DNA from: Acaryochloridaceae cyanobacterium OTE_25_metabat_464
GTDB taxonomy: Bacteria; Cyanobacteriota; Cyanobacteriia; Thermosynechococcales; Thermosynechococcaceae
Assembly: GCA_031362245.1 (NCBI GenBank)
Contig: JANLSD010000014.1
Span: 23,235 to 87,234 of the forward strand
Length of the DNA: 64,000 nt
Direction: 5' to 3'
Below, in pieces: positions 15,845 to 56,897 of this stretch (position 1 is its first letter; each line of letters starts with the position of its first letter). Both the position numbers and the translations under genes were made by a program. Below the pieces are notes generated by a model, which was given only the letters and a program-made list of their open reading frames with translations, was not told the DNA's origin and searched no databases.

Positions 15845-16336
15845 CTAAGCTGGGGCGATCGCCGTTACTGTCCCATTAGAACCTCTATACTTGAGTGCCC
15901 CATCCTGAACGTATAGAATTCCACCGCCTGCGGGGTTTACGGATGGCGCAACGGTAGCATTTGCGATCGCAATTACACCTTTTCCTTTACCAAACTGATC
16001 GCTGGTGCGGATGCCGATGTTGCCTCCTTCTGCTAACCGTTGGATCACGGCGATCGTCTCGAAGCCTTTATTGTCGGCCTTGCGACCATTGATCTGGAAC
16101 TTGTCGGACTGGACGGCGATCTCGTATTTTCCGGCTGGGGCGATTTGATCGGTTTCGACGAATTCGATGTCGGGATTGGGGTCGTCGATTCTGATTGAGG
16201 CTGCGCCGCCGCTGGTGCCTGATTGTTTGATGTGCAGGGCGGGTTGGTTATAGTCTGGGTTTGTGGCAGATATTTCTAGAACGGAGGATGCTGAGTTGAG
16301 GGTGCCTTCGTTGGATGTGATAGATTGAGTAGCCAT
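15845..16336 (-). CDS. Orphan-operon gene 6: small Gly/beta-rich protein (163 aa) with a tail-fibre-like C-terminus
   Basis: ATG at 16336 is preceded by CAGGAGAAAACA (SD). It has no TM segment or signal peptide. The C-terminus GGGILYVQDGALKYRGSNGTVTAIAPA resembles fibre/spike-tip modules. No firm family assignment. Confidence 0.6.
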   Translation of the reverse strand: MATQSITSNEGTLNSASSVLEISATNPDYNQPALHIKQSGTSGGAASIRIDDPNPDIEFVETDQIAPAGKYEIAVQSDKFQINGRKADNKGFETIAVIQRLAEGGNIGIRTSDQFGKGKGVIAIANATVAPSVNPAGGGILYVQDGALKYRGSNGTVTAIAPA

Positions 16337-16417
16337 TGTTTTCTCCTGTAAGTTAATTTTGATTTTGTTATTGAGAGTTTCCTCCAACCCGACCCCATTT
16401 TTATTTCGGCAGTAAAA

Positions 16418-19400
16418 TTAGATCACCTTAAGTGTTGGATCACCATTGATCATCTGAAATTTGTCGGTCGAACTTGCTTTTGAAAAGTTTTTGTTAGCGG
16501 CGGCGAGCGCATCACCCACCGTTCCACCCGCCAAAAATTCATCCAGCAATGCTTTTATGGCGGGTGCCCATTGAAGGGTATTGGTAAGCCGATCCTTCCC
16601 TGACTGGGTTACGATAACGACGGTATCGCCCCTAATCTTGGTGATACATTGACTCGTTGCACAGCCAGCCAGTACCACAATTTTTGCTTTGGCAGTATTG
16701 AGGAGGTTGGTCAGTTCCGGACATGTGATATCCGGTTTCTGTCTACCCGGATCATACGGTGTCAATCCCAATGTTCTGTTCGTCCCAAGCACCGTGTGTC
16801 CGAAATAGACAACGACCGAACCTGTCGATTGCAGTGAACTCTTAAAGTCAATAGCGGCAGTGCTTGGATTGCTGATAAGATTGATTGAAAGACCGGCCAG
16901 ATCGAATCGGTTTGCTCCCATATCACTGGGGCTTTGATCCACAATCCAATCAAAAAACTGCTGCCTTGTATAGCCGACATCTAGTTTCTTAAAATAGACG
17001 TGCATGAAAATGTCCGTGGTTGGTATATTATGCAGGCTCAATTTCTTGACACCTTGTTTCGGTGTTTGTAGCTCCACCTCGACTGATTCTGTGGCTCCTT
17101 CCGATTCTTCCTCATCTGAGTTCTCAGTCAGCCAGTCAAATTCTTCTCTATCTTCTTGAGCAAAGGCTTCTACAAATGCCTCTTCGGCTGAATCGTCTCG
17201 TGCGTTCAGAGAGGCTTCGTCCTCAGAAACTTCATCGTCCTCAGCAATTTCATGTTCTAGAGCCTCTAACGATTTAGAGGCACGCCTATGCCAGGGCGAG
17301 CCAGCATACTCGCCGTCCATGTATGCTGAACCCGAGGTGTATTTGTAAATATGTACCTCCTTGTCAGAGAGATAGTCGACTCGTACGTCGACCTCAACAC
17401 CCGCAGCCACTGTCACAATCGCGACGGCGTTTTGGAAAAGTGCCAGACTTGGAGCATCAGCACTATTCTTTGACATGAAGCCAGGTTCCAGCCGATAATT
17501 GCCGATCTTGAAATATAGTTCACTCAGTTTCGCGGCGAGCCATGCTTTGCCGGATGAGCGAATGGTTGTCTGTAAGCCTGAGCAGGTGATCTGTAATAGT
17601 TCGGGCTTTGGTCTGCCACTGCCAGGGAGATTGGCAGTCATGCAATAGTTGTGGTGTACGTCGCCCGAAACCAGCACCAGTGTTTTCACTTGGCTCCCCG
17701 TCTTGCGCATAGCGTCGACTAGTCCCCATAAATCGCGCCAGCTCTTATCCCGAATCATATGCTCCAAGTCCGTAGCTCTGCGAAAGACGCGGAGCAATGA
17801 GTCTGAAGCTATGCCCAGCATCGTAGAACTTGTTGCAGCAGCAACAAGGGACGGTAGATTAGCCTGATCCCAAGCCTCAGCAGTTGTTTCGGGCTTCATC
17901 ATGATATTCATCATCTGCTTCTGCAGAAGCAGCGGCGTAGACAGTGCGATGAAAGCTACTGGTCCGGCTGGCCCCTTCTCGACGAGGATTTGACGCATCC
18001 ACGCAAGTTGAGCGTCGTCGATAGTCTGCGACATAGGACGCTTTTTCGGATCGTCGTGGTCAATGATCCTTAACTTGTCGTCGGCTGGAATCATCAATTT
18101 GCGAGTCCGGCAGTCGGGAACCAAAAACGGTGGATCGAACGGGAGTTTATAGTGCCACTCCAGACTCATGCCCGACTGGTAGCTGGCTTTTGGATCCTTT
18201 GGTGGCAATGGAGTGAAGCAAGCACGATGGATACATCTGCGTAGCGCTGGTAGCGCATCAATGCCCTGCTGCTGCGCTGCTGCGAGAGCTTTGACCCGTG
18301 GGTCATCAATTTTCCACTGCGACGGAGCCTTATTGCACCAGCCTTGGTACATCCAGTAAGCGGCCAAGCTGTCAGTCAATGTCTTGGGCCACATTCGGTA
18401 AGCATCCTTTTCATTGTGAAGCATCCGCACCCATGACAGGTCAAAGTTCCAGTCGTCAGTCGCCTCATGGTCGTCGAGCATGAGGAACGTGGGAACCTGC
18501 GCAAGTAACACGCGCACGCTGCGTGAACTAGTCCAGGAGCGCTCGTAGAGATATGCGTACTCAGCAAAGTCAGCTGCGTGTCGTCCCCCTGCAGCCGCAA
18601 GATGCCCACGATGATTCGGCTGAACTATCGCTGAATTGGAGCCATCAACAACTGTAGGAAGCAAAGGTTCAAAATCCGGGATCTGCCATAGCAGGAAGTT
18701 GTGGGAGATGTAGCGGTTGGCCATCGGATTGCGCCGTACTATAGTACGGAAACCAACTGTCCAGTGGGGCAGAAATGCCCGATAAGATCCACTCTTGAGA
18801 TTCAATTTGTCGACGGACTTGAGAAGGGTAAGCGCTTTACTATAGGTTTCCTGGTCTGATACCTTGCCTCCCAGCCCCCACGTCAGCCCGGTCATAAGTT
18901 GATGGGCCAGAACCCGACTCTCCTTATCTGTAGTACCAGTCTTTGGATATCGGTGGTAGATGCTTTTGATCTCCGGATACTTCTCATATAATTCATCGAG
19001 TTTCTTGAGGTCGTCTCTGACATTTTCAACAAACTTTGTGTCAGGGTCTTTGTATGCCTTATATCGGTGCGCGAACCTGCCAGCCCACGCCCCATCGATG
19101 AGCTTATCGCGCACGGATGAGGCCGAATCCACAGGCCCTGGAATCCGTGCGGCGAAGCGTCCCCTAATCATCATTTCGCCATGATCATCACCAATCTGAT
19201 CGGAGTAAATCTGATCCCCGCCGAAAAACAGGAAGTGCGGCCACTTCTCCTTCGGCGCGGTGCGCAGCCAGTCACCAAGACCGTGGAGCATGTCTGGCCC
19301 CCAGTCTTTGCCATTTTCCTTGTCGCCGGGGTACCATCGGCACGAACCTGTCGCGAATTTTAACTGTTTGTCGTATTTTTGACGAAGCGTGCGAAAGGTG

Positions 19401-20662
19401 AGCCACTCGTTCTGACTGAGCGACGCACTCGCAAGCTGCTTTTTCATAGATGTGGCAGCCAACGTCGTCAACTTTGGAAAGACGCCCTCGAATTCCTTTT
19501 GTGCGATAGGAATCGCACCGGATGACGGCAGCGGTACTACTTCAACTGTGTAGTCATAGAACTTTTCCTCTTGCAGATCGTCAATTTCCACTGCTGCAAA
19601 ATGCCGACCACCAACACGCACCGTCGAAGCATAACGCGATGACTCTTTACTATCGCCCGTCTTCTTGTATCGCACTCGAATCATGCTGGGCGTTACCGTC
19701 TCCATCCAAATTACCGAGCGTGCGTAGTCGGTGTAGCGAACGAAGGGACCCACTCGAATGTGCGCAGGAGTTGCACGGATCTGCACCTTGCTAAGTTGCG
19801 AGAGGAATGGTTTAGCAACCCGGATGGGTCGGCGCGTAATGTGCTCATGTTGTAAAAATCTCTCAATGCGGCTGCCAAACGCGGTATCATCCTGCACGGC
19901 AAGATCCATCTCTTGCTGGTAGTGGGGCCAGAAGTTCTTATCTGCTTTCTTATCATCACGCACCAGTGTCCAGTCAAACCAAGTACCACCGTATTCGATC
20001 TTTGGGTCGTCTGGATTCAAGAATGCTCCCGATCGGATAGCGCACACCCGGTCACGCACCTCGAACATAAAAGGCTGGGTGAGGTCAATTTTACTGAAGT
20101 AAGCATGCCCTTTTCTTTTCTCACTGAACTCACCGTGCTCACTGAGGTTGCCCTGGTGGAAGGCATACTCGCCATTGGTGACTGGCATATCCTTATCATC
20201 GACAACAAGGATATGCGGCAGATCTCGAACTTCTTCCTGCTGAGTTTTTATCGGCTTAGGCATTAACTGCTCGAATCGATCCATTGTCTCAGTATGGGAG
20301 GGAGAATAGCTTTCTTCCCACAGTGCAGCCTCTGTCTCAAAATTGCTCTCTCGATATTCATTTTCCTCTGCTTCCATAGAGACTGCTTCATCTTCTCCGG
20401 AATAGACTGAGACTGGGATGGTTTCTTGTTCATCTAATTCACCGAAAAAATCCTCAAATTCTTCCACTCTACCAGTCGCCTCCTCTTCCTCAAAAGCCTC
20501 AAGAAAAGGACTTTCTGGCTGAAACCCAGGCGCAGGAACTCTCCACTGTGCGATTCTTGCCTCGTCAGCCAGAAACTCCTCATTAAGAAATGGCAACTCT
20601 AGTTCTTGTCTAGGTTCGTGGGAATCAAAAGAGTTCTGGAGTGGATCGGATGAGGAAGACAT
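16418..20662 (-). CDS. Orphan-operon gene 5: 1414-aa multidomain protein (acidic ESPF leader, PhoD-like metallophosphatase, acidic linker, C-terminal His/Cys clan-CD/CHAT-like domain)
   Basis: SD TTAGGAGATATCC precedes the ATG. PhoD_N-like sandwich at about aa 300-375. Metallophosphatase motifs: FATGSCRWY (436), FFGGDQIYSD (479), LMLDDHEATDDW (727), LVSGDVHHNY (997). Acidic linker at aa 1130-1200. C-terminal VVVYFGHT (1284) and IVVLAGCAT (1328). Confidence 0.8.
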   Translation of the reverse strand: MSSSSDPLQNSFDSHEPRQELELPFLNEEFLADEARIAQWRVPAPGFQPESPFLEAFEEEEATGRVEEFEDFFGELDEQETIPVSVYSGEDEAVSMEAEENEYRESNFETEAALWEESYSPSHTETMDRFEQLMPKPIKTQQEEVRDLPHILVVDDKDMPVTNGEYAFHQGNLSEHGEFSEKRKGHAYFSKIDLTQPFMFEVRDRVCAIRSGAFLNPDDPKIEYGGTWFDWTLVRDDKKADKNFWPHYQQEMDLAVQDDTAFGSRIERFLQHEHITRRPIRVAKPFLSQLSKVQIRATPAHIRVGPFVRYTDYARSVIWMETVTPSMIRVRYKKTGDSKESSRYASTVRVGGRHFAAVEIDDLQEEKFYDYTVEVVPLPSSGAIPIAQKEFEGVFPKLTTLAATSMKKQLASASLSQNEWLTFRTLRQKYDKQLKFATGSCRWYPGDKENGKDWGPDMLHGLGDWLRTAPKEKWPHFLFFGGDQIYSDQIGDDHGEMMIRGRFAARIPGPVDSASSVRDKLIDGAWAGRFAHRYKAYKDPDTKFVENVRDDLKKLDELYEKYPEIKSIYHRYPKTGTTDKESRVLAHQLMTGLTWGLGGKVSDQETYSKALTLLKSVDKLNLKSGSYRAFLPHWTVGFRTIVRRNPMANRYISHNFLLWQIPDFEPLLPTVVDGSNSAIVQPNHRGHLAAAGGRHAADFAEYAYLYERSWTSSRSVRVLLAQVPTFLMLDDHEATDDWNFDLSWVRMLHNEKDAYRMWPKTLTDSLAAYWMYQGWCNKAPSQWKIDDPRVKALAAAQQQGIDALPALRRCIHRACFTPLPPKDPKASYQSGMSLEWHYKLPFDPPFLVPDCRTRKLMIPADDKLRIIDHDDPKKRPMSQTIDDAQLAWMRQILVEKGPAGPVAFIALSTPLLLQKQMMNIMMKPETTAEAWDQANLPSLVAAATSSTMLGIASDSLLRVFRRATDLEHMIRDKSWRDLWGLVDAMRKTGSQVKTLVLVSGDVHHNYCMTANLPGSGRPKPELLQITCSGLQTTIRSSGKAWLAAKLSELYFKIGNYRLEPGFMSKNSADAPSLALFQNAVAIVTVAAGVEVDVRVDYLSDKEVHIYKYTSGSAYMDGEYAGSPWHRRASKSLEALEHEIAEDDEVSEDEASLNARDDSAEEAFVEAFAQEDREEFDWLTENSDEEESEGATESVEVELQTPKQGVKKLSLHNIPTTDIFMHVYFKKLDVGYTRQQFFDWIVDQSPSDMGANRFDLAGLSINLISNPSTAAIDFKSSLQSTGSVVVYFGHTVLGTNRTLGLTPYDPGRQKPDITCPELTNLLNTAKAKIVVLAGCATSQCITKIRGDTVVIVTQSGKDRLTNTLQWAPAIKALLDEFLAGGTVGDALAAANKNFSKASSTDKFQMINGDPTLKVI

Positions 20663-20746: not shown

Positions 20747-21892
20747 TTAGGAGCGGACTTTTTCTTTCATATTGCGATCGGTTGCCAACGACCAGTAGTT
20801 GATAATCAAATTCATATCTTGAGCAACTTCATTCGGCTTTTCAACAGGTGTCGTTCCAACAGGAATTGTAGCCATATATAGAGCTGGCACTGTCGGTACT
20901 TCGTTGTAAGTTCCGAGTTCAATTTGAGTTAATAGTCTAGATAGAGGGTCAGCAAGACGGAAGAAGTAGTAAGACTTAGCGTGAACAGGCAATTTAACTT
21001 GATTAGCAATCTTTTTCAACCGCTCCTCTTCATTGGAACCCTCCGCCCGCATAGAGACGACAATTGGGGAATCAAACTCCAGGCTCAAATGGAACCAAGA
21101 CATCATTGATACAAACCAGAACTCTTCTTGGGAGAGATTGCCGTTGATGCGGCGAGTTCTCAACATGTTATTGAGACGGCGGGCTAGAAGAGCGATTGTG
21201 GCATCATCTTTGGGATTCGAGCCACTGGTATTTTTTGCGTTAGCAATTGCAACCCAAACCTCTTTTAGAAATTCCTCAAATGTGCTGACAAATTCACGAT
21301 TAGCAACATCGGGTTTTTCATAAGGATATGGCTTGTTATCACTCGTCCCATGATTGAGATCCATTCCAAACATGCGATAGTAGGCATTCCGTCGAGAAGC
21401 TCCCTGGTCTGGGCGAATGTAGCTTGATACAGAGTAGATACTAAAGGGGGCTGGATCTCGAAAGAACAACTCTTCCGTATTCCGCAGCCAATGTTGAGTA
21501 CTGGCAAGGGGAACACCCAATCGTTCGCTGTGCCGATACTCATAGATTACCCGCCTGAAGATTTCGTAAATATTTGTGTTTTCGATCAGATATGCATAAA
21601 TAAGGTGATCCCAGCAAAAGAGTCCTTTATTTTTAGGGGAAAACTTATCCTTATTTGGAACGTAAAAATCATTTTCATCAGCACCGAGAATTTCAAGAAG
21701 ATAGTCAGGCAGTTGAGGAATATCACTCCGACGGTTAGGATGCCCAAGCGGATCATTATCCGACTTTCTGAACTCCCAGCCCATTTCTAACAAGGCAGCT
21801 AATTTTGACGGATGCAAACGGAAGAGTAGTTCTGCCTTTTGATAAGGTGTATCAAGTGGAAGTGGGGTTCGAGCAGCGATGCGTCTAAACAT
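20747..21892 (-). CDS. Orphan-operon gene 4: hypothetical soluble protein (381 aa)
   Basis: ATG is preceded by ATAGGAGAAACTAACTA. No TM segment and no recognisable motif. AT-richer than its surroundings. Confidence 0.7.
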   Translation of the reverse strand: MFRRIAARTPLPLDTPYQKAELLFRLHPSKLAALLEMGWEFRKSDNDPLGHPNRRSDIPQLPDYLLEILGADENDFYVPNKDKFSPKNKGLFCWDHLIYAYLIENTNIYEIFRRVIYEYRHSERLGVPLASTQHWLRNTEELFFRDPAPFSIYSVSSYIRPDQGASRRNAYYRMFGMDLNHGTSDNKPYPYEKPDVANREFVSTFEEFLKEVWVAIANAKNTSGSNPKDDATIALLARRLNNMLRTRRINGNLSQEEFWFVSMMSWFHLSLEFDSPIVVSMRAEGSNEEERLKKIANQVKLPVHAKSYYFFRLADPLSRLLTQIELGTYNEVPTVPALYMATIPVGTTPVEKPNEVAQDMNLIINYWSLATDRNMKEKVRS

Positions 21893-21960: not shown

Positions 21961-22326
21961 TCATTTCAGAACCTGGTTTTTGGGTTTACAATCTTCACCG
22001 AGCGGAAGTTCGTCTAGCTGCGGCGAACTTGCCAACGCTTCTTTATCTACCTTCGGTAAACACCATTCCTTTTCAGGGCCAACTAGCGCTTTTTTGATTT
22101 TGAGGAATTCATCTCTGGCATATTCTGGAGTTCCCAGTATCGGGGAAGTTTTTTGGGTTTCTACTGGATTTTCCATGGTTTTCTGCTCTTTTGTTTGTTG
22201 AAATTTCAAAGTGCCTGCAATAAGGTCACTATTTTTGTCAGTTAAACTTTTTTGATCTTCTGTTTTTTTATCTGGCTGGGATGCTCCTGGCGGAGTATTT
22301 TCTGGTCTGCCTTTTTCCTCTGTCAT
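21961..22326 (-). CDS. Orphan-operon gene 3: small Lys/Glu/Pro-rich, probably disordered protein (121 aa)
   Basis: ATG is preceded by TTAGGAGAGGAAAACCC. Low-complexity charged sequence with no known domain. Confidence 0.5.
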   Translation of the reverse strand: MTEEKGRPENTPPGASQPDKKTEDQKSLTDKNSDLIAGTLKFQQTKEQKTMENPVETQKTSPILGTPEYARDEFLKIKKALVGPEKEWCLPKVDKEALASSPQLDELPLGEDCKPKNQVLK

Positions 22327-22356: not shown

Positions 22357-23652
22357 TCAAGCAACCTGCAAAGTCTCCCCCAGCCTCAGCATCCAGTCTT
22401 TTTGCTGTTGCAAAACCTCCAACGCCCGATCGGATCGAGTCGCCGCCAGATATCCCGTCAGAGCCAACAGCCGGAGCGGCTCCGTCCAGACCCAATGATG
22501 CGACGTATACAGCGCCGCGCCACCCTGTTGCTCCAGTTTTGCCAACGCTTCCGGGCTAACCCGTCTGGGGTCAATCAGCATCGCCAGGGAATCGCCTCGA
22601 AAGGCTCGCATCGGAGCCGCCAGCGTCAACTCAGCGATTCTCGGCAGCAATGGCAAAGATTGTTGCAACAACTCCCGCACCTCTGGTCTGGCCCGCGCCA
22701 AATCAAGTTCCTGCCGCCATGTCCGCTCCAATTCATCCCAAGGCCCCCTGCCAAAAAACAGACGACACATTTCGATTCCCAGCAACAGGCGGAGATAGCC
22801 GATCGGGTGAGGATCACCTGGAAGATAGCGGAAGGCGATCGCCTCACCACCAGCAATCACCGTATGCAGCCCCGAAACCGCCGCATAGCCCGTATGCGCA
22901 AACGCAAACGTATCAGCCGCAATTTCACTCGACCAGCTTGCCCACATTCCAGCCACCTCTGGCGACACCACCGATAGCTCCCTGTCCAGAAGCGCCGCCA
23001 GTTCGTCACTCCAACCAATAAACTGAGCAACCTGGTGCCCCGCTTCATGAATCAAAGCCGTCGGACGGTAGAGATTGTGTCGCGTAATCTTGATCGCCGC
23101 CGTCAGGCTTTCCGTTTTGCCATCCCACAACCGCAGTCCGGCTTTGAGAATGGAGGCTCCCAACCCCTTATCGATATAAGTCAACACGGGCGGCGTGGTT
23201 TTACCCAACTGATCTAGCAACTGCGACATACTGCGCCGTGCCAACACATCACAGGCACGCAAAAGTGCTGCAAGTCTTGGACTGGTTCGAGTATTGAGGG
23301 CATCAGCATAGAAATCTAGCAACGTTTCCGTCTGTAGATAATGCTGCCGAAATCCCAACAACTGGCGTTGAACCTGATTGATCTCGTCGCGCGTTCTCGC
23401 CACATTCAACTGACCTTGTAGCGTCGCCGCCTGTCGCTGGAGCCGCTCCACCGCCGCCGATAGGTTCTGGCGCAACACAATCCCCGTATACTTTTCCAGC
23501 CCCTCCCAAACACTCGCCGAAGCCAGATCTTCTAAATCCCCCAGCCTCGACGCGGCCATCGCCCAGTGCGACACCTGACGGGCAAGATGTAAACGCAGCG
23601 CATCGGTATCTTCAACCACGATTGAACCCTGGAACAACTTGGACGTTCGCAT
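22357..23652 (-). CDS. Orphan-operon gene 2: putative gluzincin-type zinc metalloprotease (HEAGH)
   Basis: Start MRTSKLF at 23652 is preceded by AAGGGAGG. HEAGH is encoded at 23035-23049 (aa 202-206), followed about 36 aa later by SSEIAADTFAF, a candidate third ligand Glu. The N-terminal half looks helical. Confidence 0.65.
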   Translation of the reverse strand: MRTSKLFQGSIVVEDTDALRLHLARQVSHWAMAASRLGDLEDLASASVWEGLEKYTGIVLRQNLSAAVERLQRQAATLQGQLNVARTRDEINQVQRQLLGFRQHYLQTETLLDFYADALNTRTSPRLAALLRACDVLARRSMSQLLDQLGKTTPPVLTYIDKGLGASILKAGLRLWDGKTESLTAAIKITRHNLYRPTALIHEAGHQVAQFIGWSDELAALLDRELSVVSPEVAGMWASWSSEIAADTFAFAHTGYAAVSGLHTVIAGGEAIAFRYLPGDPHPIGYLRLLLGIEMCRLFFGRGPWDELERTWRQELDLARARPEVRELLQQSLPLLPRIAELTLAAPMRAFRGDSLAMLIDPRRVSPEALAKLEQQGGAALYTSHHWVWTEPLRLLALTGYLAATRSDRALEVLQQQKDWMLRLGETLQVA

Positions 23653-26017
23653 CGGGCATACCTCCCTTAGCCTGCATCTCCTGAATATTGACCGACTCTC
23701 CGCGCAAGATTTTCCGCAGATGTGCAAATCCAGGTGGATTAGTAAAGACAATTTTCAACGTCACCCCATCGGCAGGGTTTTCTGTAGCAGTAATGAAATC
23801 TGGAGATTTCTGTTGTAAGTAAGTCGTCAGATTCTTGCCCAGCCATTCAATCAGATGTTTAATAAACCATTCCCGAACCGCCTGAGGCAGACGACTCAAA
23901 ATTCGTCCTCGCGATCCTTTCGGCGGCACTTTACCGTGGATCGTTTTCAGGTGGCTATGGTGCTTCCCAGTCATGATTTTTTTCAACCGTGGCTCATAGA
24001 CCGCACTTAAATGGGGCATAACCGTGCCGATCGATGCCTTTTGGCGAAGCTTCACAGCGATCGCCTGAGCCACAGCCTCACTAAGAAATAGGTGGATTTT
24101 AATTTGGTCGTGCGGGAAATCAAATCGGATATTGAGTTGTCGGATGCGTCTGGGCTTTGGCGCACCCCCAGCCACTGGCACTACCTGCGGACGCGCTTCG
24201 GGAATCTCCAAATAGTAGAGCCGTTGACCTACCGCAGTTGTAGGCTGATGGTCGAGGTATTTCTCTGGCACCTCCCGTCCCAATCCTGGCTGACCGAACA
24301 CCATTCCAGCCGCCTCTGGGGTGAGGGGATGCAGATGCGTCCAAGCAGTTATGCTACCCAGTCCAGGCACATGCCGCTCGGATTTGCAAATTTGACTCAG
24401 CAGCGTTCCAGGGATTGCTTCGTAAAGATGCACCCGTGCCTTGATCGCTCGACCTGGCGACAGCCCCAGTCGATCTTGCAGAAATTCCGCCAGCGGCACA
24501 TCACAGAACGTTTTCACCACCCGCGCCATGTGGGGAGTAATGATCGTTTCATAAACCCTAGTACATTTTTTGTAACGTTTATTACCCCGTAACGGCTGCA
24601 TCACCCAGGTGGACTTAATGCCAGTCGTCTCTCGTAGTTCAGGTCTGGCTTCATATATCCGTTCTGGCAGAACAGGTGGTAGATTGACAGAAGCAGACTG
24701 TTCAAAGGCTTCTAGGGCATATCCTTCCAACAGTTCTTGGTTATCTAGAATGTACTCTGGCAGTGCCGCAATCTGACGCACCGTATCTTCAAGCGTGGCG
24801 GCAACCGCTGAACGGGCAGCATGGACTTCATTCTCAGGTGTGGCTTCCAAATGAATTAAGCGCAAACCTACGTCCACCATTGCCTGAGATAGTGCTGGAG
24901 CATATTGAGGACCAATGAACTTTCGGATCAGTTTGGCTAAGAACTCGGCAAGCCAATTAACGATCTTGACTCGACCCACCATGCTTATTCCCAGCTTTAA
25001 AGCAGGCAGAATGGCAGGTATAAAGTTTTGCACTAGCGGGGTCGGATCTTCTCCTTCTCTCAATTCGCCAAGCTGCGTTACAAACTGGGCACGTGCTCTA
25101 TCTAACTCACTGAGTGGATCGTGGGTGATCGGCTGCTGCGATTCTTTAACATATTCGGCGATCGCCAATTCCTGTTCTACAGCCTCTTTGCTAAACAAAA
25201 GATTCGCAATTTGCCCATCAAACTCTCGTTGAATTCCAGAAACATCCGGCGTGGCATCTTCTTCGGTAGTGGCTTCTTCTTCAAATTCTTGATTCAGCAG
25301 CCGTTTAGCAAATTGATCGGCCACGGGGCGAAGTGCCGCAGGCAATTTGTTGATACCCTGTTTCACAACTCTCTGCACCAGTGGCATAATCAGTTGTTTG
25401 AGCTTTTGCAGAATGGGTTTGAGTGCAAAGTTGCCAGCTAGATTAATCCCCTGCTTCACTAAACCACCGGCTTTCTTGAGCAAACTACCAAAAAAGTTCT
25501 CAAAGCTGGGAGAGAGACTATTTTGAGGTTCATAGCGATCAATAAAGGATTCAATTTCTGCCTCATCGAGGCTACTTGGGCTACGTTGTCCAAATTCATT
25601 TGCCATCGTGTCCAGAAACATCTCGGCTTCTGTGACCAAAGGTGCAAAGTGCTGCTCTAGCATCCGTGTCGCCTGCATTTTCTGAGCAAGCGGATCTCCA
25701 TATTCACTCTCAAATCGATCTTGATAAAGTTCGTCGGCCTCACTGACCAACTCAAATACCGCCTCATCAAACTCCTCATCATAGAGTTCGCTGAGAAACT
25801 CCATCATCTCCTCAGCTTCTGGATCGATCGATCCCGCTTCGTTTTCCAATTCATAGACGGAACGGAACGGACTTTCGCGTTGAGCAAGATTTGAGTAGAA
25901 TGCCTGTCCTTCTGATGCTTCCGATGCCTCATCAAAAAACTTCATCGTTATATTAGGAAAGGGGGACTCAAAATCTTGGGATTGAGAGCCATAGTTCTCT
26001 TCTGTAAAAGATGACAT
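23612..26017 (-). CDS. Orphan-operon gene 1: 801-aa protein with acidic double-ESPF leader followed by a cationic amphipathic segment
   Basis: SD AAGAGGTAACA precedes the ATG. ESPF at aa 17-20 and 48-51. Glu/Asp-rich up to about aa 165, then FFGSLLKKAGGLVKQGIN...RVVKQGINKLP. The remainder shows no recognisable domain. Confidence 0.75.
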   Translation of the reverse strand: MSSFTEENYGSQSQDFESPFPNITMKFFDEASEASEGQAFYSNLAQRESPFRSVYELENEAGSIDPEAEEMMEFLSELYDEEFDEAVFELVSEADELYQDRFESEYGDPLAQKMQATRMLEQHFAPLVTEAEMFLDTMANEFGQRSPSSLDEAEIESFIDRYEPQNSLSPSFENFFGSLLKKAGGLVKQGINLAGNFALKPILQKLKQLIMPLVQRVVKQGINKLPAALRPVADQFAKRLLNQEFEEEATTEEDATPDVSGIQREFDGQIANLLFSKEAVEQELAIAEYVKESQQPITHDPLSELDRARAQFVTQLGELREGEDPTPLVQNFIPAILPALKLGISMVGRVKIVNWLAEFLAKLIRKFIGPQYAPALSQAMVDVGLRLIHLEATPENEVHAARSAVAATLEDTVRQIAALPEYILDNQELLEGYALEAFEQSASVNLPPVLPERIYEARPELRETTGIKSTWVMQPLRGNKRYKKCTRVYETIITPHMARVVKTFCDVPLAEFLQDRLGLSPGRAIKARVHLYEAIPGTLLSQICKSERHVPGLGSITAWTHLHPLTPEAAGMVFGQPGLGREVPEKYLDHQPTTAVGQRLYYLEIPEARPQVVPVAGGAPKPRRIRQLNIRFDFPHDQIKIHLFLSEAVAQAIAVKLRQKASIGTVMPHLSAVYEPRLKKIMTGKHHSHLKTIHGKVPPKGSRGRILSRLPQAVREWFIKHLIEWLGKNLTTYLQQKSPDFITATENPADGVTLKIVFTNPPGFAHLRKILRGESVNIQEMQAKGGMPDANVQVVPGFNRG

Positions 26018-26149: not shown

Positions 26150-26180
26150 AGGTTGAGACGACAAACTGTCGTCTCAACCT
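26150..26180. promoter_or_regulatory. Perfect 13-bp stem / 5-nt loop palindrome upstream of the orphan operon
   Basis: AGGTTGAGACGAC-AAACT-GTCGTCTCAACCT lies 133-163 nt upstream of the 26017 start codon, with no U-tract on either strand. It could be an operator, a 5'-UTR structure, or a terminator of the retropepsin pair. Confidence 0.4.
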
Positions 26181-51827: not shown

Positions 51828-52607
51828 CTAAGCCTTTGCTAAAAAATAAACTTCCCAAGAACTGAATCCAGGCATGGCATTTGTAATCCACTCATTGCAT
51901 TGAAGCAACTCAAAATTGTGTTTCTCTAAAAGCAGCTTTACTTCTGGTTGAAATAAATATCGCATTCGATGTAGTTCATGAAAATGATTAGATGTTAAAT
52001 CATTCTTATCAGTGATGATTATTTCATAGTTGACATCAACTAAGTTCTCATTAGGTAGCAGGACTGGCTCTGCGATGCGAAGCATACTGACTTGTTTGTT
52101 TTCTAATCGCTTAATTCTGGTGGTGGGGCGATCGCTCAAAACACCAGGCCCGTACCAACAATCAAACAGAAAAATGCCCCCAGGCTTCAAATGCGCTTTT
52201 GCAGTTGCAAATGCCGCACTGAGGTCTTCATTGGATGTTTGATAACTCATTACATGAAAAAGTGAAATTACAGTATCATATTTTTTCTCGATCTGAATTG
52301 TTCGCAAGTCACCTTGCTTAAATTTTATATTTGAATCAATATATTGAGAGTTTTTTCGAAGCTGTTCATTTGCTATTGCTATCATTTCAGGACTAAGATC
52401 TATTCCATTAACCTGATATCCTTTCTCTGACAAAATTATTGCATGCTTCCCTGTTCCACATCCCAATTCTAAAATTGACTCCAATTCAGGCTGAACCTGA
52501 CTTAAAAGTGAGAGGATATAGTTTACCTCGCCAACATAGTCTTTGTCTTGATAAATTAAGTCATAATATTGTGCATAATTCTCTCGAAAATTCATACAGC
52601 TTTGCAC
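51828..52607 (-). CDS. Class I SAM-dependent methyltransferase (AT-rich cassette)
   Basis: ILELGCGTGKH motif I and LKPGGIFLFD. Confidence 0.75.
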   Translation of the reverse strand: MQSCMNFRENYAQYYDLIYQDKDYVGEVNYILSLLSQVQPELESILELGCGTGKHAIILSEKGYQVNGIDLSPEMIAIANEQLRKNSQYIDSNIKFKQGDLRTIQIEKKYDTVISLFHVMSYQTSNEDLSAAFATAKAHLKPGGIFLFDCWYGPGVLSDRPTTRIKRLENKQVSMLRIAEPVLLPNENLVDVNYEIIITDKNDLTSNHFHELHRMRYLFQPEVKLLLEKHNFELLQCNEWITNAMPGFSSWEVYFLAKA

Positions 52608-52697
52608 CTTGAAACTAAACAGACTTATAGAGAGATATTCTTTTTAGATCTAGAGAGAATGGAAGCTTAATATCAACAAAATCTCTGTAGATTATTT

Positions 52698-53819
52698 TTA
52701 TAGATTTGAAAAAATTTTCTTAAGTGATTCGAAAACTTGATTGATTTGCTGCTCAGTCAGGGTTACTCCACTGGGTAAGTAAAGACCTCTTTGAGAAATT
52801 TGTTCAGCAATGGGACAAGTAACATTGTTAAAAAGACCCATATTTAAAAACACAGGCTGTAAATGAATAGGCCAGAAAAAAGGGCGTGACCCTATATTCT
52901 GTTCCCGCAAAAGATTCATTACCCCTTTTGCATCAATTAGAGTGTTTTCTTTTAGAACAATACTATAAACCCAGTATATATTTTGGGCATAAGAAGTTTC
53001 AGCAAGGGGAATCTGTAGGCAAGATAAATCCTTGAGTAAGGCCGTGTAGCACTGACCAATTTGTCTCTTTCTTGCGACAAATTCATCAATCCGTTCTAGT
53101 TGAGCAACACCCAATGCAGCTTGGAGATTGCTCATACGATAATTCCAGCCCAGTGCATGATGAATGAAGCGCCGTTCGTTTTGCATACAAAGGTTGCGGA
53201 GAGATCGACAGCGTTCTGCTAACACCTCGTCGTCAGTTAGAATCATTCCACCTTCGCCAGTTGTTATATTTTTATTTGCATAAAAACTAAACAGACTTAG
53301 TTCACCAAAGCTTCCGCAAGGACGATTCTTATAAGTTTGACCATGGACTTCAGCGGCATCCTCAATAATCATTAATCCATATTTACTTGCCAACGCCAAA
53401 ATTGGATCCATATCCACAGGCAAACCATAAATATGAACCACCATAATGGCCTTTGTTTGAGACGTGATTTTTGATTCTACCTGAGTGATATCCATATTCC
53501 ACGTATCAGGACAACAATCCACAACGACTGGTGTTGCACCACATCTGACAATTGCTGTTGCACAGGAAATAATGGTGAAGGTTGGCAAAATAACCTCGTC
53601 ACCAACACCCAAACCTAAGCAAGAAACTGCTATGTCTAATGCCGCAGTGCCACTGCTGACCGCAATGCCAAAACGTCTGCCAACATAGGCAGCAAACTGT
53701 TGTTCAAGGCGGTCTACAAACGGGCCTTCGGATGATATCCAGCCGCTATCGATACATTCATTTAAATACTTCTTTTCATTCCCATCGAGAAGGGGTTCGC
53801 TAACAAGAATTGGTTTCAT
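52698..53819 (-). CDS. DegT/DnrJ/EryC1/StrS-family sugar aminotransferase
   Basis: 373 aa with typical N-terminus (EKKYL.ECIDSGWISSEGPFV..LE..FA), PLP-Lys region FSFYANKNITTGEGG. Confidence 0.88.
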   Translation of the reverse strand: MKPILVSEPLLDGNEKKYLNECIDSGWISSEGPFVDRLEQQFAAYVGRRFGIAVSSGTAALDIAVSCLGLGVGDEVILPTFTIISCATAIVRCGATPVVVDCCPDTWNMDITQVESKITSQTKAIMVVHIYGLPVDMDPILALASKYGLMIIEDAAEVHGQTYKNRPCGSFGELSLFSFYANKNITTGEGGMILTDDEVLAERCRSLRNLCMQNERRFIHHALGWNYRMSNLQAALGVAQLERIDEFVARKRQIGQCYTALLKDLSCLQIPLAETSYAQNIYWVYSIVLKENTLIDAKGVMNLLREQNIGSRPFFWPIHLQPVFLNMGLFNNVTCPIAEQISQRGLYLPSGVTLTEQQINQVFESLKKIFSNL

Positions 53820-54259
53820 CGGTGTAACTGCTCAGTGCTTTCGGGGGGTAAACCTTCAAAACAAGTTTTGTCTTGTTCTCCTAGGTAAGGGCCTTGCTTT
53901 ACCTCGATCATCTCCACCTCTTCTAAGATTTCAAATCCATGTCCCCCCATGATGAGTATAATAACGTCTCCAGATTCTAAAATACGACTTTCTAAGTATT
54001 TTTGTTTTTCCGTATAAAAATCAACTCGTAATCGACCTTTTTTGATGATCAAGACTTCTTGAGTTAACTGCACCTCCCGAGAAATATGATTGTGGATGTG
54101 GGGTGGGATCATTTTTCCCGCCGAATAATGCATGTATGCAAGTTGTTGGCTGAGTTCGGAGGGAGTAAAGAAATGTATACCTTTCTCCTTAAACTTGTTA
54201 GAAATAATAATCGAAAATAGAGAGTTCTGGTACTTAATTTCTTCTATCATTGTAGACAT
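53816..54259 (-). CDS. Cupin-fold protein, possible sugar keto-isomerase (WxcM/FdtA-like)
   Basis: 147 aa with PPHIHNH...GHGFE cupin metal motifs. It overlaps the aminotransferase start by 4 nt. Confidence 0.5.
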   Translation of the reverse strand: MSTMIEEIKYQNSLFSIIISNKFKEKGIHFFTPSELSQQLAYMHYSAGKMIPPHIHNHISREVQLTQEVLIIKKGRLRVDFYTEKQKYLESRILESGDVIILIMGGHGFEILEEVEMIEVKQGPYLGEQDKTCFEGLPPESTEQLHR

Positions 54260-54463
54260 ATTCTAATATCTTTATAAATCAAACTGCTGTATCTTTACAA
54301 TGTCTGCATCTTTTGAGAGTAGTATTTTTTTGCAGATTATTAATGAGAAAATAACAACACAAATGCTTGTGGCTTAAGGAATATCAGATACTCCTATCAT
54401 ATGTATTAGGGTGAGAGAAATTGCCTAAATCTCCTGTCAAGCGAGGGCCAAAAAACGTGCCGA

Positions 54464-55036
54464 TTAAGAGGTTTGCATTCCATAATTGTTGACGGCTATC
54501 CAAAGACCAGAGATCCCTAAAATACTACCTAAAGTACTCCAGGCTTGATATGAATACCCTTCTTGATACGCCCCATAAATTTGTCTGGGGATAGATAGCA
54601 AAAAACATAGAATGATCAGTAGCATTGCAACAATGACGGCACTAGGTATATCCATTACGGCTGAGAAAGCTGTTACATTGACTACCCTTTGCCTTGAAAT
54701 AAGGGAAAAGGCGGCAAGGCAAACTCCACCTGTCGTAAAAGACAGAATAAGTAATGAGTAAAATGTATCTAATATCGCATATTGTGCAACTTTTTTGTCG
54801 TTCTTACTATCAACTGAGGCAAGAATATTAGTGAGACTGCTTGCTAATCCGAGGTCAGCAATACTAGCCCAGCTTAAAAAGCTACTGAGAATCAACCAGA
54901 TTGCAAAACGTTCGGTACCCAAATACTGAACAGTTAGTGGAATTGATATTAAGCCAGCACCTGAAGTAATGCCTCTAGAAACTAGAGTTGCACCTTCTGT
55001 AAGCATTGCTCGAAAAGTTCTATTTTTTGAGGACAT
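54464..55036 (-). pseudogene. Polysaccharide flippase (Wzx/MOP-type) N-terminal fragment, apparently truncated
   Basis: The 190 aa cover only about 5 TM helices (SGAGLISIPLTVQYLGTERFAIW...). Full-length family members are usually over 400 aa. A non-coding gap of about 200 nt follows. Confidence 0.45.
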
Positions 55037-55184
55037 CTAGGACATTGAGCGCAGGTATCGCCTTTCTGAGTCTTTTCTGATACAGCTTAGTCTTTTTTAC
55101 AACACATTTGCCAAATTTTAGCTATCAAAACTCAACTGCTCTAAAAATGATATTGAAGCGATCTATGTTTGTGAGGCTATTTTG

Positions 55185-55946
55185 TCAAAAAAGATCTAGG
55201 TGAGCTACTTGAGCAAAGTCAAAATTGCCCATCTCCCAATCCGCTGGGACAAGCTGCTCTATTTTTAAATTGCTGCGCGAAAGATCCGCGCCCAGAATGC
55301 GGGTGTGAAACAGTTTTGCGCCAGAGAAGTTGGTGCGGTGCAAATTGGCCCAGGAGCAATTGGCTGCGGACAAATCCGCCTCAATGAGGGTTGCACCCAG
55401 CAGATAGGCTCGGCATAAGTTTGCTTCTCGCAAGTTGGCATGGCTTAAATCGGCTCCATAAAGCTGAGCACTGATCAGAACTGCGCGGTGGAGACTGCTA
55501 TGGCGCAAGATGGCCTGACAGAGATTTGCCTCTGTTAAGTTGGCGTTGCTGAGGTTGCTACGGCTGATCTGTGCCCCATCTAAACTTGCTTGCTTAAGGT
55601 TTGCATTGCGTAAATTGGTGCCAATGAGATTGGCGCAATGTAAATCCGTTCGCAATAGATTAGTGTCTTGTAAATTAGCCCCAATGAAGTTGGTGTGGGA
55701 GCAGTCAGCCCTCTGGAGGAAACACTTGGAGAGATCGGCGAGGGCAAAATTTGCTCCTACACAATTCGATTTCTCCAGATTTGCGCCTACTAAATTTGCA
55801 TTGCTGAAGTTGGCTTCGCTTAGGTTTATCAGGCCAAGCTCCAGATAGCTAAGGTCTGGAATGATGTGGGGATGCTGCGATCGCCAATGATTCCAGCCTT
55901 CAACGCCGTCTGTTTTGAGTATTGCCAGATGGTCTAAATTCGCCAT
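55185..55946 (-). CDS. Pentapeptide-repeat protein
   Basis: 253 aa, almost entirely A(D/N)LxG/A(N)L pentads. Confidence 0.85.
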   Translation of the reverse strand: MANLDHLAILKTDGVEGWNHWRSQHPHIIPDLSYLELGLINLSEANFSNANLVGANLEKSNCVGANFALADLSKCFLQRADCSHTNFIGANLQDTNLLRTDLHCANLIGTNLRNANLKQASLDGAQISRSNLSNANLTEANLCQAILRHSSLHRAVLISAQLYGADLSHANLREANLCRAYLLGATLIEADLSAANCSWANLHRTNFSGAKLFHTRILGADLSRSNLKIEQLVPADWEMGNFDFAQVAHLDLF

Positions 55947-56602
55947 TATTCTTTTGCGGTTTGCCGTGATTGAGTCAGGTCAGGATGTGCCCGTCCTGGG
56001 GTATTTTCCATCGAACTAATGACGGCTCGCATGGCTGCCATAATGTCTTGTTCTTCGCCGCCTAAGTACAGCCGTCCAAAGGCTCCCACGGCCTGGACTT
56101 CTAGGATATTAATGAAGGCTGCTTTTTCGGCTTCATTGGCGGCTAGAGCTGCATAGGCCGCAGGCTGAACTTCCATCACGTAGAGGGCTTGGCCTGCCAT
56201 CAACATCTGGCCCCGTGCCATGCGGTTGATGAGCTGGGCTTGGTGGGCATCAATATTGCGAATCACCTGACTGGACACCACATTAGGTCTCAGGCAGTCT
56301 TCTCTTCGTACCCCTAGGGCATTGAGGATGGCGCGGGAGGCTGCTTGGACATCGGCTTGGCTGCTGGCATGGACTTCCATGAGGCCAAATAAGCGTTCTA
56401 CAAACTGAACGGCGGGTCGAACGACGGCAGACTTAAGGGCCACATCCATGATGCGGTTGATTTCAATACCAGGGGAAATTTCGATCCAAAGCGAGGTGTC
56501 TCCTGGCAGGGGTAAAAAGCCAGAGGCGATGGTTCCCATGTAGGCGGCGTGTTGTGATTGCAAGCTATCTATATAAACGTAGCTTCGTAATTCAATGCCC
56601 AA
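55946..56602 (-). CDS. ccmP: Tandem-BMC-domain carboxysome shell protein (CcmP-like)
   Basis: 218 aa; [24 protein letters not shown]...[26 protein letters not shown] closely matches my recollection of CcmP. Confidence 0.7.
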
Positions 56603-56769: not shown

Positions 56770-56897
56770 GTAAGGGATGGGTCTCATGGTAAATTACTGA
56801 AGCTTAACGTCGGGAAAGTCCGGTGAAAGTCCGGCGCTGTGCCGCAACTGTAAGGGATCTGCCTCACTCAGATACCCAAGTCAGAATGCCGACGCGG
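56770..56897 (+). promoter_or_regulatory. Cobalamin (B12) riboswitch
   Basis: Core GGGAAAGTCCGGTGAAAGTCCGGCGCTGTGCCGCAACTGTAA plus B12-box-like AAGTCAGAATGCCGAC, directly 5' of the cobG start. Confidence 0.75.

Follow-up and report, generated by a model that had tools for sequence, protein, structure and literature searches.

We analysed a stretch of 64,000 nucleotides (the window) of contig JANLSD010000014.1 from Acaryochloridaceae cyanobacterium OTE_25_metabat_464, and found that two otherwise unrelated proteins encoded in one operon, a protein of 801 residues (c1) and a protein of 1414 residues, carry the same tag at their N-termini. The tag is real and conserved, and consists of two short linear motifs about 28 residues apart in an acidic stretch. 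The operon (26017-16418, minus strand) is one copy of a widespread unannotated cassette, in which the tag is shared by the core protein c1 and by dozens of unrelated cargo architectures. This sharing agrees with the idea, put forward in a preliminary description of the window, that the leader is a recognition tag, while the step at which it would be read is our extrapolation from the sequences. We propose, with a probability of about one half, that the tag serves a zincin-like protein of the cassette itself (c2) as a signal for docking and cleavage, by which c1 and the cargo would be matured together.

Tag conservation in c1 and the cargo proteins

The open reading frames (ORFs), sequences, residue numbers and coordinates given for the two proteins in the preliminary description were all correct (801 residues, 23612-26017 (-); 1414 residues, 16418-20662 (-)). 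As described there, c1 and the 1414-residue protein each begin with MSS and have a duplicated E(S/L)PF motif at matching positions, at E17-S-P-F20 and E48-S-P-F51 in c1 and at E22-L-P-F25 and E50-S-P-F53 in the 1414-residue protein, and the two proteins share nothing beyond the leader. The spacing between the two SPF motifs is about 28-31 residues, within an acidic N-terminal stretch; the net charge is -34 over residues 1-170 of c1 and -32 over residues 1-135 of the 1414-residue protein. A Glu/Asp/Phe-rich continuation had also been ascribed to both leaders. The acidity is indeed common to both, but the FLxELxDEEF helix motif was found in 103 of 114 c1 proteins and in only 10 of 105 cargo clusters, most of these cyanobacterial. 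The tagged N-termini contain the following features.

25829-26017 (-): c1 leader, residues 1-63, net charge -9; predicted disordered, with a predicted local distance difference test score (pLDDT) below 50
25958-25969 (-): core of c1 motif 1, E17-S-P-F20; P19 and F20 kept in at least 90% of 91 homologues, and in the logo
25850-25876 (-): c1 motif 2, E48-S-P-F-R-S-V-Y-E56; P50 and F51 invariant, S53, Y55 and E56 kept in at least 90%
25760-25798 (-): c1 acidic helix motif FLSELYDEEFDEA, residues 74-86; helical in the model, pLDDT ~80-85
25292-25507 (-): c1 Lys-rich segment, residues 171-242, computed net charge +10
20453-20662 (-): cargo leader, residues 1-70, matched by a cargo-leader profile built without window sequences
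20573-20599 (-): cargo motif 1, E22-L-P-F-L-N-E-E-F30, from sequence and logo
20489-20515 (-): cargo motif 2, E50-S-P-F-L-E-A-F-E58, from sequence and logo
20258-20488 (-): cargo acidic tract; net charge -18 over residues 71-135

When the two window proteins were compared directly by BLASTP, the best alignment (E=0.004) was out of register. Such a pairwise comparison of the two leaders is by itself uninformative, and significance emerges only with homologues. In c1 alignments with 20 and 91 homologues (91-114 bacterial and archaeal homologues overall), P50 and F51 were invariant and P19 and F20 were kept in at least 90%, so that the SPF motifs form conserved islands in an N-terminus that varies elsewhere. 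When a profile was built from the c1 N-terminus alone, it matched the N-termini of large downstream proteins at other loci. For the reciprocal comparison, a cargo-leader profile was built from 16 cargo leaders of other loci, excluding c1 and all sequences of the window, and searched against 5343 ORFs. This profile matched the 1414-residue protein of the window at residues 18-70 (E=1.5e-7) and the c1 of the window at residues 13-74 (E=3e-3), and about 40 further c1 N-termini were also matched. As a control, each window N-terminus was shuffled 5000 times with its composition preserved. None of the 5000 shuffles reached the score of the cargo profile for the 1414-residue protein (35.7 bits) or for c1 (19.7 bits), and one of the 5000 reached the score of the c1 profile for the 1414-residue protein (10.1 bits).

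The logos of c1 and cargo agree for motif 1, (E/Q)-S-P-F-L-(D/N)-x-x-x-F, and for motif 2, S-P-F-(L/R)-x-hydrophobic-(Y/F)-E, and the motifs are separated by a median of 28 residues in c1 and 27 in cargo. Over residues 1-150, the median net charge is -28 in c1 and -25 in the 105 cargo clusters. In the AlphaFold2 (AF2) model of c1, the tagged stretch is of low confidence. No features of a Sec or Tat signal were found in the leaders, which are strongly acidic and have no hydrophobic stretch. Between the coding stretches of the c1 leader and the 1414-residue leader there was no similarity at the DNA level, and the codons of the motifs differ; thus, conservation acts on the peptide, and a recent duplication is excluded.

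Spread of the cassette and its cargo

The preliminary description had suggested a scan with a hidden Markov model of the leader, and such a scan returned many carriers at significant E values, well beyond the two window proteins. The cassette has the order c1 (~800 residues, tagged), c2 (~420 residues), a small protein (c3), c4 (~385 residues), and then one to three large variable proteins, here called cargo. On the minus strand of the window, a run of six ORFs in the same orientation extends from 26017 to 15845 (c1, c2, c3, c4, the 1414-residue cargo and an ORF of 180 residues), with intergenic gaps of 30-84 nucleotides apart from the overlap of c1 and c2. The genes and domains of the window copy are as follows.

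23612-26017 (-): c1, 801 residues, conserved core protein, from ORF and translation
22357-23619 (-): c2, 420 residues, zincin-like signature, from GTG start and conserved motifs
23032-23049 (-): c2 HEAGHQ (HExxH); H235, E236, G238, H239 and Q240 invariant
22912-22926 (-): c2 E-I-A-A-D (ExxxD); E276 and D280 invariant
21961-22326 (-): c3, 121 residues, small, hydrophilic and fast-evolving, between c2 and c4
20747-21892 (-): c4, 381 residues, all-alpha core protein according to its AF2 model
16418-20662 (-): variable cargo protein, 1414 residues, from ORF and Pfam
16421-17077 (-): C-terminal cargo domain with a tentative clan-CD (caspase/gingipain-like) peptidase fold, from a weak Peptidase_C25 match and a GH...GC pattern

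Methanosarcina flavescens and Nitrosococcus wardiae have the same gene order, and the cassette was found with a nearly invariant architecture at 74 loci of a species-level genome collection, in about 15 phyla. The hosts include Cyanobacteria, Nitrospirota, Acidobacteriota, Desulfobacterota, Myxococcota, Dormibacterota, Proteobacteria, Ignavibacteriota, Bacteroidota, Actinomycetota, Calditrichota, Verrucomicrobiota and Methanosarcina. Three additional contigs have the identical layout, one of them a Hodarchaeota metagenome-assembled genome (MAG) whose cargo is a Peptidase_M74 murein endopeptidase. The comparison set comprised 78 sources (77 loci and the window). Clustering of the flanking ORFs showed which genes are conserved, namely c1, c2, c4, those of the variable proteins and, in 32 loci, one for a LuxR-type regulator upstream. 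The regulator, of LuxR/GerE helix-turn-helix type and 148-150 residues long, is encoded 30-140 nucleotides upstream of c1 (Bacteroidota, e.g. L048 9433-9882 and L053 9425-9871), and NtrC-like or response-regulator genes are upstream of c1 in some loci of other phyla. The stop codon of c1 and the start codon of c2 overlap by 8 or 4 nucleotides in 37 of 71 loci.

Within 10 kb on either side of the cassette at the 74 loci, we found no linked genes for transporters, ATPases or injection systems, none for type II, V, VI or VII secretion, Photorhabdus virulence cassettes (PVC), MuF or TcdB/TcaC trafficking, and no Hcp/VgrG/PAAR or type VI secretion system (T6SS) core genes as neighbours. Sheath, tube or baseplate genes or an AAA+ loading ATPase were not found at the window or the other loci. 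Neither plasmids (PLSDB), phages (INPHARED) nor IMG/VR contigs contained c1, and a phage lysis cassette or a plasmid-borne bacteriocin was therefore rejected as the general context. The features of a holin-endolysin cassette are also missing, since the core proteins have no clear transmembrane helix, there is no phage context and the flanks are housekeeping genes. The anti-phage defence models of PADLOC gave no match for the cassette. No conserved small gene was found after the cargo, and cargo-specific immunity genes were not searched for systematically. A metagenomic copy (L078) has RepA_C genes on both flanks (369-908 and 19872-20201), which suggests a plasmid or mobile element, though c1 has no PLSDB match. 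An ORF of 159 residues in L075 (9992-10471) was considered as a new, ‘leader-only’ architecture and rejected, because it covers only residues 1 to about 120 of c1 and is a decayed remnant, in a deltaproteobacterial MAG with no c2 or c4 nearby.

Nearly all of the variable proteins are tagged: in most loci, the first large ORF after c4 begins with the bipartite motif, and second cargo genes are tagged too. The cargo leader in most phyla reads LESPFL(D/N)EELF, followed after about 20 residues by ESPFLxAFE. In Bacteroidota, it reads M(N/E/Q)SPF(T/I/V)DF with an SPF later, and the c1 of this phylum has ETPFAD and then ESPFSRTYE. When 41 otherwise unrelated cargo proteins were aligned with MAFFT, the SPF motifs were the only recurrent consensus features. 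A homologue search with the leader alignment, in which the word index favours short proteins, gave four short fragments, all true leaders, which were reused as seed. An exhaustive HMMER search with a five-sequence leader profile against 1.84 billion representative proteins then returned 147 clusters at E<=1e-3, 28 of them at E<=1e-10, with proteins of 53-1563 residues, none of which is c1. Nearly all matches were at or near the N-terminus, and one begins at residue 69. In cyanobacteria, cargo proteins between 247 and 1414 residues long begin with nearly the same leader, the pattern expected from cassette swapping.

The cargo was characterised by Pfam scans of 41 and 59 tagged proteins. PG_binding_1 was found in 13 and 14 of these, respectively, trypsin-like peptidases in 4 and 16, and PLD phospholipase in 6 tagged proteins. 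Other domains include VanY/M15, Amidase_2, SLT, muramidase, phage-tail lysozyme, M23, GH46, DUF2272, S8 subtilase and FAD amine oxidase, and multi-domain cargo is common (e.g. PLD with PG-binding and amidase, or DUF2272 with PG-binding and SLT in Methanosarcina). By its domain content the cargo targets envelope or extracellular substrates, yet it has no Sec or Tat signal. Two amine-oxidase cargo ORFs depart from the N-terminal position of the tag. In L017 (15086-18490) one ORF encodes the amine oxidase and a second cargo, with the tag between them (residues ~598-640), and in L019 (15079-18408) it is at residues 1067-1100, 9 residues from the C-terminus. A T6SS_HCP domain was found near the C-terminus of 2 of the 41 cargo proteins, both from Bacteroidota (L053 15632-20581, 1e-29; L049 13380-18401, 6e-28), and these domains may reflect a link to a type VI system or a tube-like fold.

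In the 1414-residue protein of the window, the tag and the acidic tract are followed by a DUF7800 (3e-12) and PhoD-like phosphatase region (PhoD 3e-5, below the Pfam cut-off), a second acidic linker and a C-terminal domain with a His/Cys pattern. The second linker (residues 1121-1195, net charge -23) separates the phosphatase-like part from the C-terminal domain, the ~220 residues of which have a GH...GC pattern and a weak Peptidase_C25 match (E=0.016); a clan-CD peptidase fold is tentatively assigned to it on these features. Among the 78 sources, only five other ORFs resemble the 1414-residue protein, two of them in the leader alone.

Core proteins and how the tag may be read

More than 460 homologues of c1, at 45-100% identity, were found in bacteria and archaea, all of them unnamed and with no Pfam domain; hundreds, from cyanobacteria, Nitrosococcus, Nitrospira, Geobacter, Verrucomicrobia, Methanosarcina and a Hodarchaeota MAG, are 45-50% identical. 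c1 consists of the tagged acidic N-terminus, the Lys-rich amphipathic segment, a helical domain and a C-terminal alpha/beta domain. Its AF2 model (pLDDT 77.5, predicted template modelling score (pTM) 0.80) had no match above noise in Foldseek searches of the PDB and BFVD. The strongest amphipathic stretches of c1 are residues ~202-233 in the Lys-rich segment (hydrophobic moment ~0.6-0.66, compared with 0.26 on average for the protein) and residues 350-368 outside it; residues 326-367 form a borderline hydrophobic hairpin. None of c1-c4 gave a family match in Pfam, NCBIfam, PADLOC or PHROGs, and PDB sequence profiles gave no match for c1, c2 or c4. For c4, more than 1548 homologues were found, none of them named; its AF2 model is all-alpha (pLDDT 88.4, pTM 0.89) and has no fold match in the PDB (TM <0.2).

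c2 had been listed as an ORF of 464 residues with a TTG start. The GTG at 23619, which gives 420 residues and overlaps the c1 stop codon by 8 nucleotides, is most likely the true start. Over 56 homologues, c2 has a mean column identity of 57%, and in the numbering of the 464-residue ORF, H235, E236, G238, H239 and Q240 are invariant in the 56 sequences, as are E276 and D280, 36 residues on. We take HExxH...ExxxD to be the thermolysin-type (gluzincin) arrangement, with ExxxD as the motif expected for the third ligand. Unlike thermolysin, c2 has a spacing of 36 residues, a helical N-terminal half of ~190 residues and no sequence match to a peptidase family, so that the likeness, with the five key residues invariant in 56 homologues, is one of motifs alone. 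No peptidase family in Pfam or NCBIfam and no PDB sequence matched c2, and a permissive Pfam scan of the 56 homologues gave scattered coiled-coil noise. c2, which adjoins c1 and is translationally coupled to it, is thus a candidate for a dedicated protease. At the c3 position, an ORF of 64-226 residues was found in 45 of the 58 loci that have both c2 and c4. Similarity among these sequences is confined to short motifs (F..I(K/R).aL.vP in most phyla; ISTSSVRRKD or GVVNIRP in Bacteroidota), and an FN3- or CARDB-like domain is present in some of them. We did not adopt c3 as an immunity protein or a cargo-specific adaptor, because it is hydrophilic and coiled-coil-like and its short motifs are common to loci with different cargo.

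We propose that conserved proteins of the cassette itself read the tag as an address label. We favour c2 as the reader, since no other core protein shows a catalytic signature and since c2 is coupled in translation to the tagged c1. In this scheme, c2 would dock at the SPF motifs and clip the acidic pro-region from c1 and the cargo, and c4 and the small c3 protein would act as cofactors or chaperones. Any downstream enzyme could thereby be matured and joined to c1 by one machinery, and mature c1, with its cationic amphipathic helices, would act together with the enzymes on the envelopes of other cells. Because one tag is found on cargo with unrelated active sites, recognition is favoured over a cargo-specific inhibition. 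The internal tag of L017, at what looks like a polyprotein junction, and the near-C-terminal tag of L019 argue for a docking or cleavage motif over a signal that is threaded N-terminus first. Methanosarcina, which has no murein, keeps diverse peptidoglycan-directed cargo, and this favours action on other organisms. Since no membrane protein or ATPase component was found, release would probably not occur via a classical secretion machine.

Several points weigh against the proposal of docking and cleavage by c2. Cleavage, binding and secretion are all deduced by comparison, the assignment of c2 as a peptidase comes from its motifs, and a conserved cleavage site could not be pinpointed. Peptidoglycan-directed weapons usually come with an immunity gene, and none was recognised here, although a systematic search for cargo-specific ones was not made. 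The proposal also offers no route by which large folded enzymes would leave the cell, and the two Bacteroidota cargo proteins with a terminal Hcp domain could mean a type VI hand-over in those hosts. As a wider and more tentative suggestion, the cassette might be a new protein weapon or delivery system of bacteria and archaea with no ATPase or integral membrane component, in which the portable SPF tag would recruit any downstream enzyme, together with the membrane-active ~800-residue partner of novel fold, for maturation and release. The Methanosarcina cassette would then be an archaeal weapon against bacterial cell walls, and the tag could be used to load arbitrary proteins.

The logic of the cassette appears to be that of tag-addressed polymorphic effectors. 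Polymorphic toxins combine a conserved N-terminal region with variable C-terminal enzymes, and some have a releasing metallopeptidase (Zhang, Aravind et al. 2012, PMC3482391). The cassette resembles them in its conserved N-terminus, its variable C-terminal enzymes and the cassette swapping among close relatives. Unlike in those systems, however, no known trafficking domain (Pfam and NCBIfam on leaders and core proteins), no secretion system and no recognisable immunity gene after the cargo were found, the metallopeptidase-like c2 is a separate conserved gene with no Pfam match, and the cargo consists mostly of envelope-degrading enzymes rather than nucleases or deaminases. Unlike type VI effectors, the cassette has no T6SS genes as neighbours and occurs also in Actinomycetota and archaea. 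Double-glycine leaders of bacteriocins are another case of one leader type on many cargo, removed by a C39-peptidase ABC exporter encoded alongside; in contrast, the cargo of the cassette consists of enzymes of 250-2000 residues, and there is no ABC transporter, Gly-Gly site or C39 domain. Many archaeal peptidoglycan hydrolases have no signal peptide, and contractile injection systems have been suggested as one route (PMC12352652). That study does not describe the cassette, and we found no description of it elsewhere in the literature. The machinery is unrelated to anything described, and there is a substantial chance that the cassette is a new kind of system.

The tag could instead be a packaging signal that loads c1 and the cargo into or onto a carrier of cassette proteins (c1, c4 or c3), with c2 in the role of a maturation protease, comparable to phage proheads or the payload loading of injection systems. 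The closest functional analogue of the tag would be the packaging domain of PVC and other extracellular contractile injection systems (eCIS), a disordered N-terminal domain that is necessary and sufficient for loading; PVC loading also requires the AAA+ ATPase Pvc15 and a phage-tail-like particle (PMC10097599, PMC11495950). Like this domain, the tag is an N-terminal stretch, with disorder predicted on the c1 leader, on unrelated variable proteins whose genes close a conserved operon at its 3' end. In addition, c1 and c4 are very highly conserved, as is typical of structural proteins, and the operon has a protease-like gene. Unlike PVC/eCIS, the cassette has no ATPase, for loading or otherwise, and no particle genes, and while PVC domains diverge between payloads, the tag has two sharply conserved motifs and is also on a core protein. 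Being tagged itself, c1 resembles cargo and not a shell, and no capsid-, sheath-, tube- or encapsulin-like fold was found for c1 and c4 in the PDB or for c1 in BFVD. Phage T4 offers a related case, in which a short N-terminal capsid-targeting sequence on unrelated internal proteins is cut by one prohead protease that also processes structural proteins. Unlike in T4, there is no capsid-like protein or phage context in the cassette, and the tag is longer, bipartite and acidic. Taken together, packaging appears rather unlikely.

Export is another possibility, in which the acidic, aromatic-rich, unstructured N-terminus would start translocation via a host channel or a pore of c1, driven by the membrane potential instead of ATP. 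This would suit a cargo that acts outside the cytoplasm with no Sec or Tat signal, the net charge of about -25 over the first 150 residues, a cassette with no ATPase, and the cationic amphipathic helices and borderline hydrophobic hairpin 326-367 of c1. However, clear transmembrane helices are missing from the core proteins, the cassette occurs with diderm, monoderm and archaeal envelopes alike, which is hard to reconcile with a single translocon, and a tag that can be internal or C-terminal is contrary to N-terminus-first threading. We regard an export signal as quite improbable.

To the same low degree, the cassette could serve suicide, i.e. lysis in abortive infection, if c2, once triggered, removed inhibitory acidic leaders, so that c1 would permeabilise the cell's own membrane and the endolysin-like cargo would destroy its own wall. 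The cargo domains do overlap those of phage endolysins, which likewise have no signal peptides. There is a dedicated upstream regulator, a protease-like protein is accompanied by protease- or caspase-like cargo, and no immunity genes were seen, cargo-specific ones having had no systematic search. Against this, Methanosarcina has no murein, yet two of its species retain different peptidoglycan-directed cargo. Moreover, PADLOC gave no match, c1 is absent from the phage, IMG/VR and plasmid collections, and amine-oxidase cargo is typical of secreted antimicrobials and not of self-lysis.

Two further explanations are effectively excluded. A DNA homology patch for recombination of cargo, with no role of the peptide, would fit the near-identical cyanobacterial leader before many cargoes, which is typical of cassette swapping, but the window c1 and cargo leaders have no DNA similarity and use different codons, and the motifs are kept as amino acids across phyla in leaders that are otherwise highly diverged. 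A chance likeness of two acidic low-complexity N-termini, to which the non-significant pairwise BLASTP in the register of the preliminary description might have pointed, is contradicted by the reciprocal profile matches and the shuffle controls, by PF positions that are invariant across domains of life, and by the 147 significant clusters among 1.84 billion proteins, nearly all at or near the N-terminus.

If docking and cleavage by c2 is the correct reading, thousands of genomes, in cyanobacteria, Bacteroidota, Acidobacteriota, Actinomycetota, Nitrospirota and Methanosarcina, would encode a so far unrecognised system by which large lytic enzymes are armed and deployed, with core proteins that have no known relatives, of which both that were modelled (c1 and c4) have no known fold. 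The cargo would be addressed by a tag of roughly 45 residues with two short motifs. The cassette offers a testable handle on the maturation and release of signal-less peptidoglycan hydrolases in archaea and bacteria, on whether archaea turn such hydrolases on bacteria, and on whether foreign proteins could be loaded by a transplanted tag. For annotation, hypothetical proteins in more than 460 clusters for c1 and more than 1500 for c4 (90% identity), and in at least 147 clusters for the tagged cargo (50% identity), would gain a context.

Neighbouring features of the window

The genes that flank the operon have housekeeping functions and are on the opposite strand; purL, purF and a gene for a HAD hydrolase are at one end, and a gene for an EF-G-like GTPase is at the other. 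The last ORF on the operon strand is listed here with its coordinates.

15845-16387 (-): ORF of 180 residues (163 residues from the likely ATG), with a phrog_4013 match

Its sole match was to phrog_4013 (unknown function, 4e-7), and it has no counterpart after the cargo genes in other loci; it may not belong to the cassette, and its membership is doubtful. About 135 nucleotides upstream of the c1 start, at 26151-26179 (-), there is a perfect 13-bp inverted repeat with a 3-nucleotide loop (GGTTGAGACGACA gtt TGTCGTCTCAACC). Since the repeat has no T-run, it may be an operator or a structure in the 5' untranslated region rather than a terminator. Elsewhere in the window, the GC content falls to 0.39-0.42 at 52001-56000, compared with ~0.50 in the remaining window, and this stretch may be foreign DNA. 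An AdoCbl-II (cobalamin) riboswitch aptamer, unrelated to the cassette, was found at 56795-56899 (+) with 38 bits against a gathering score of 36.5.

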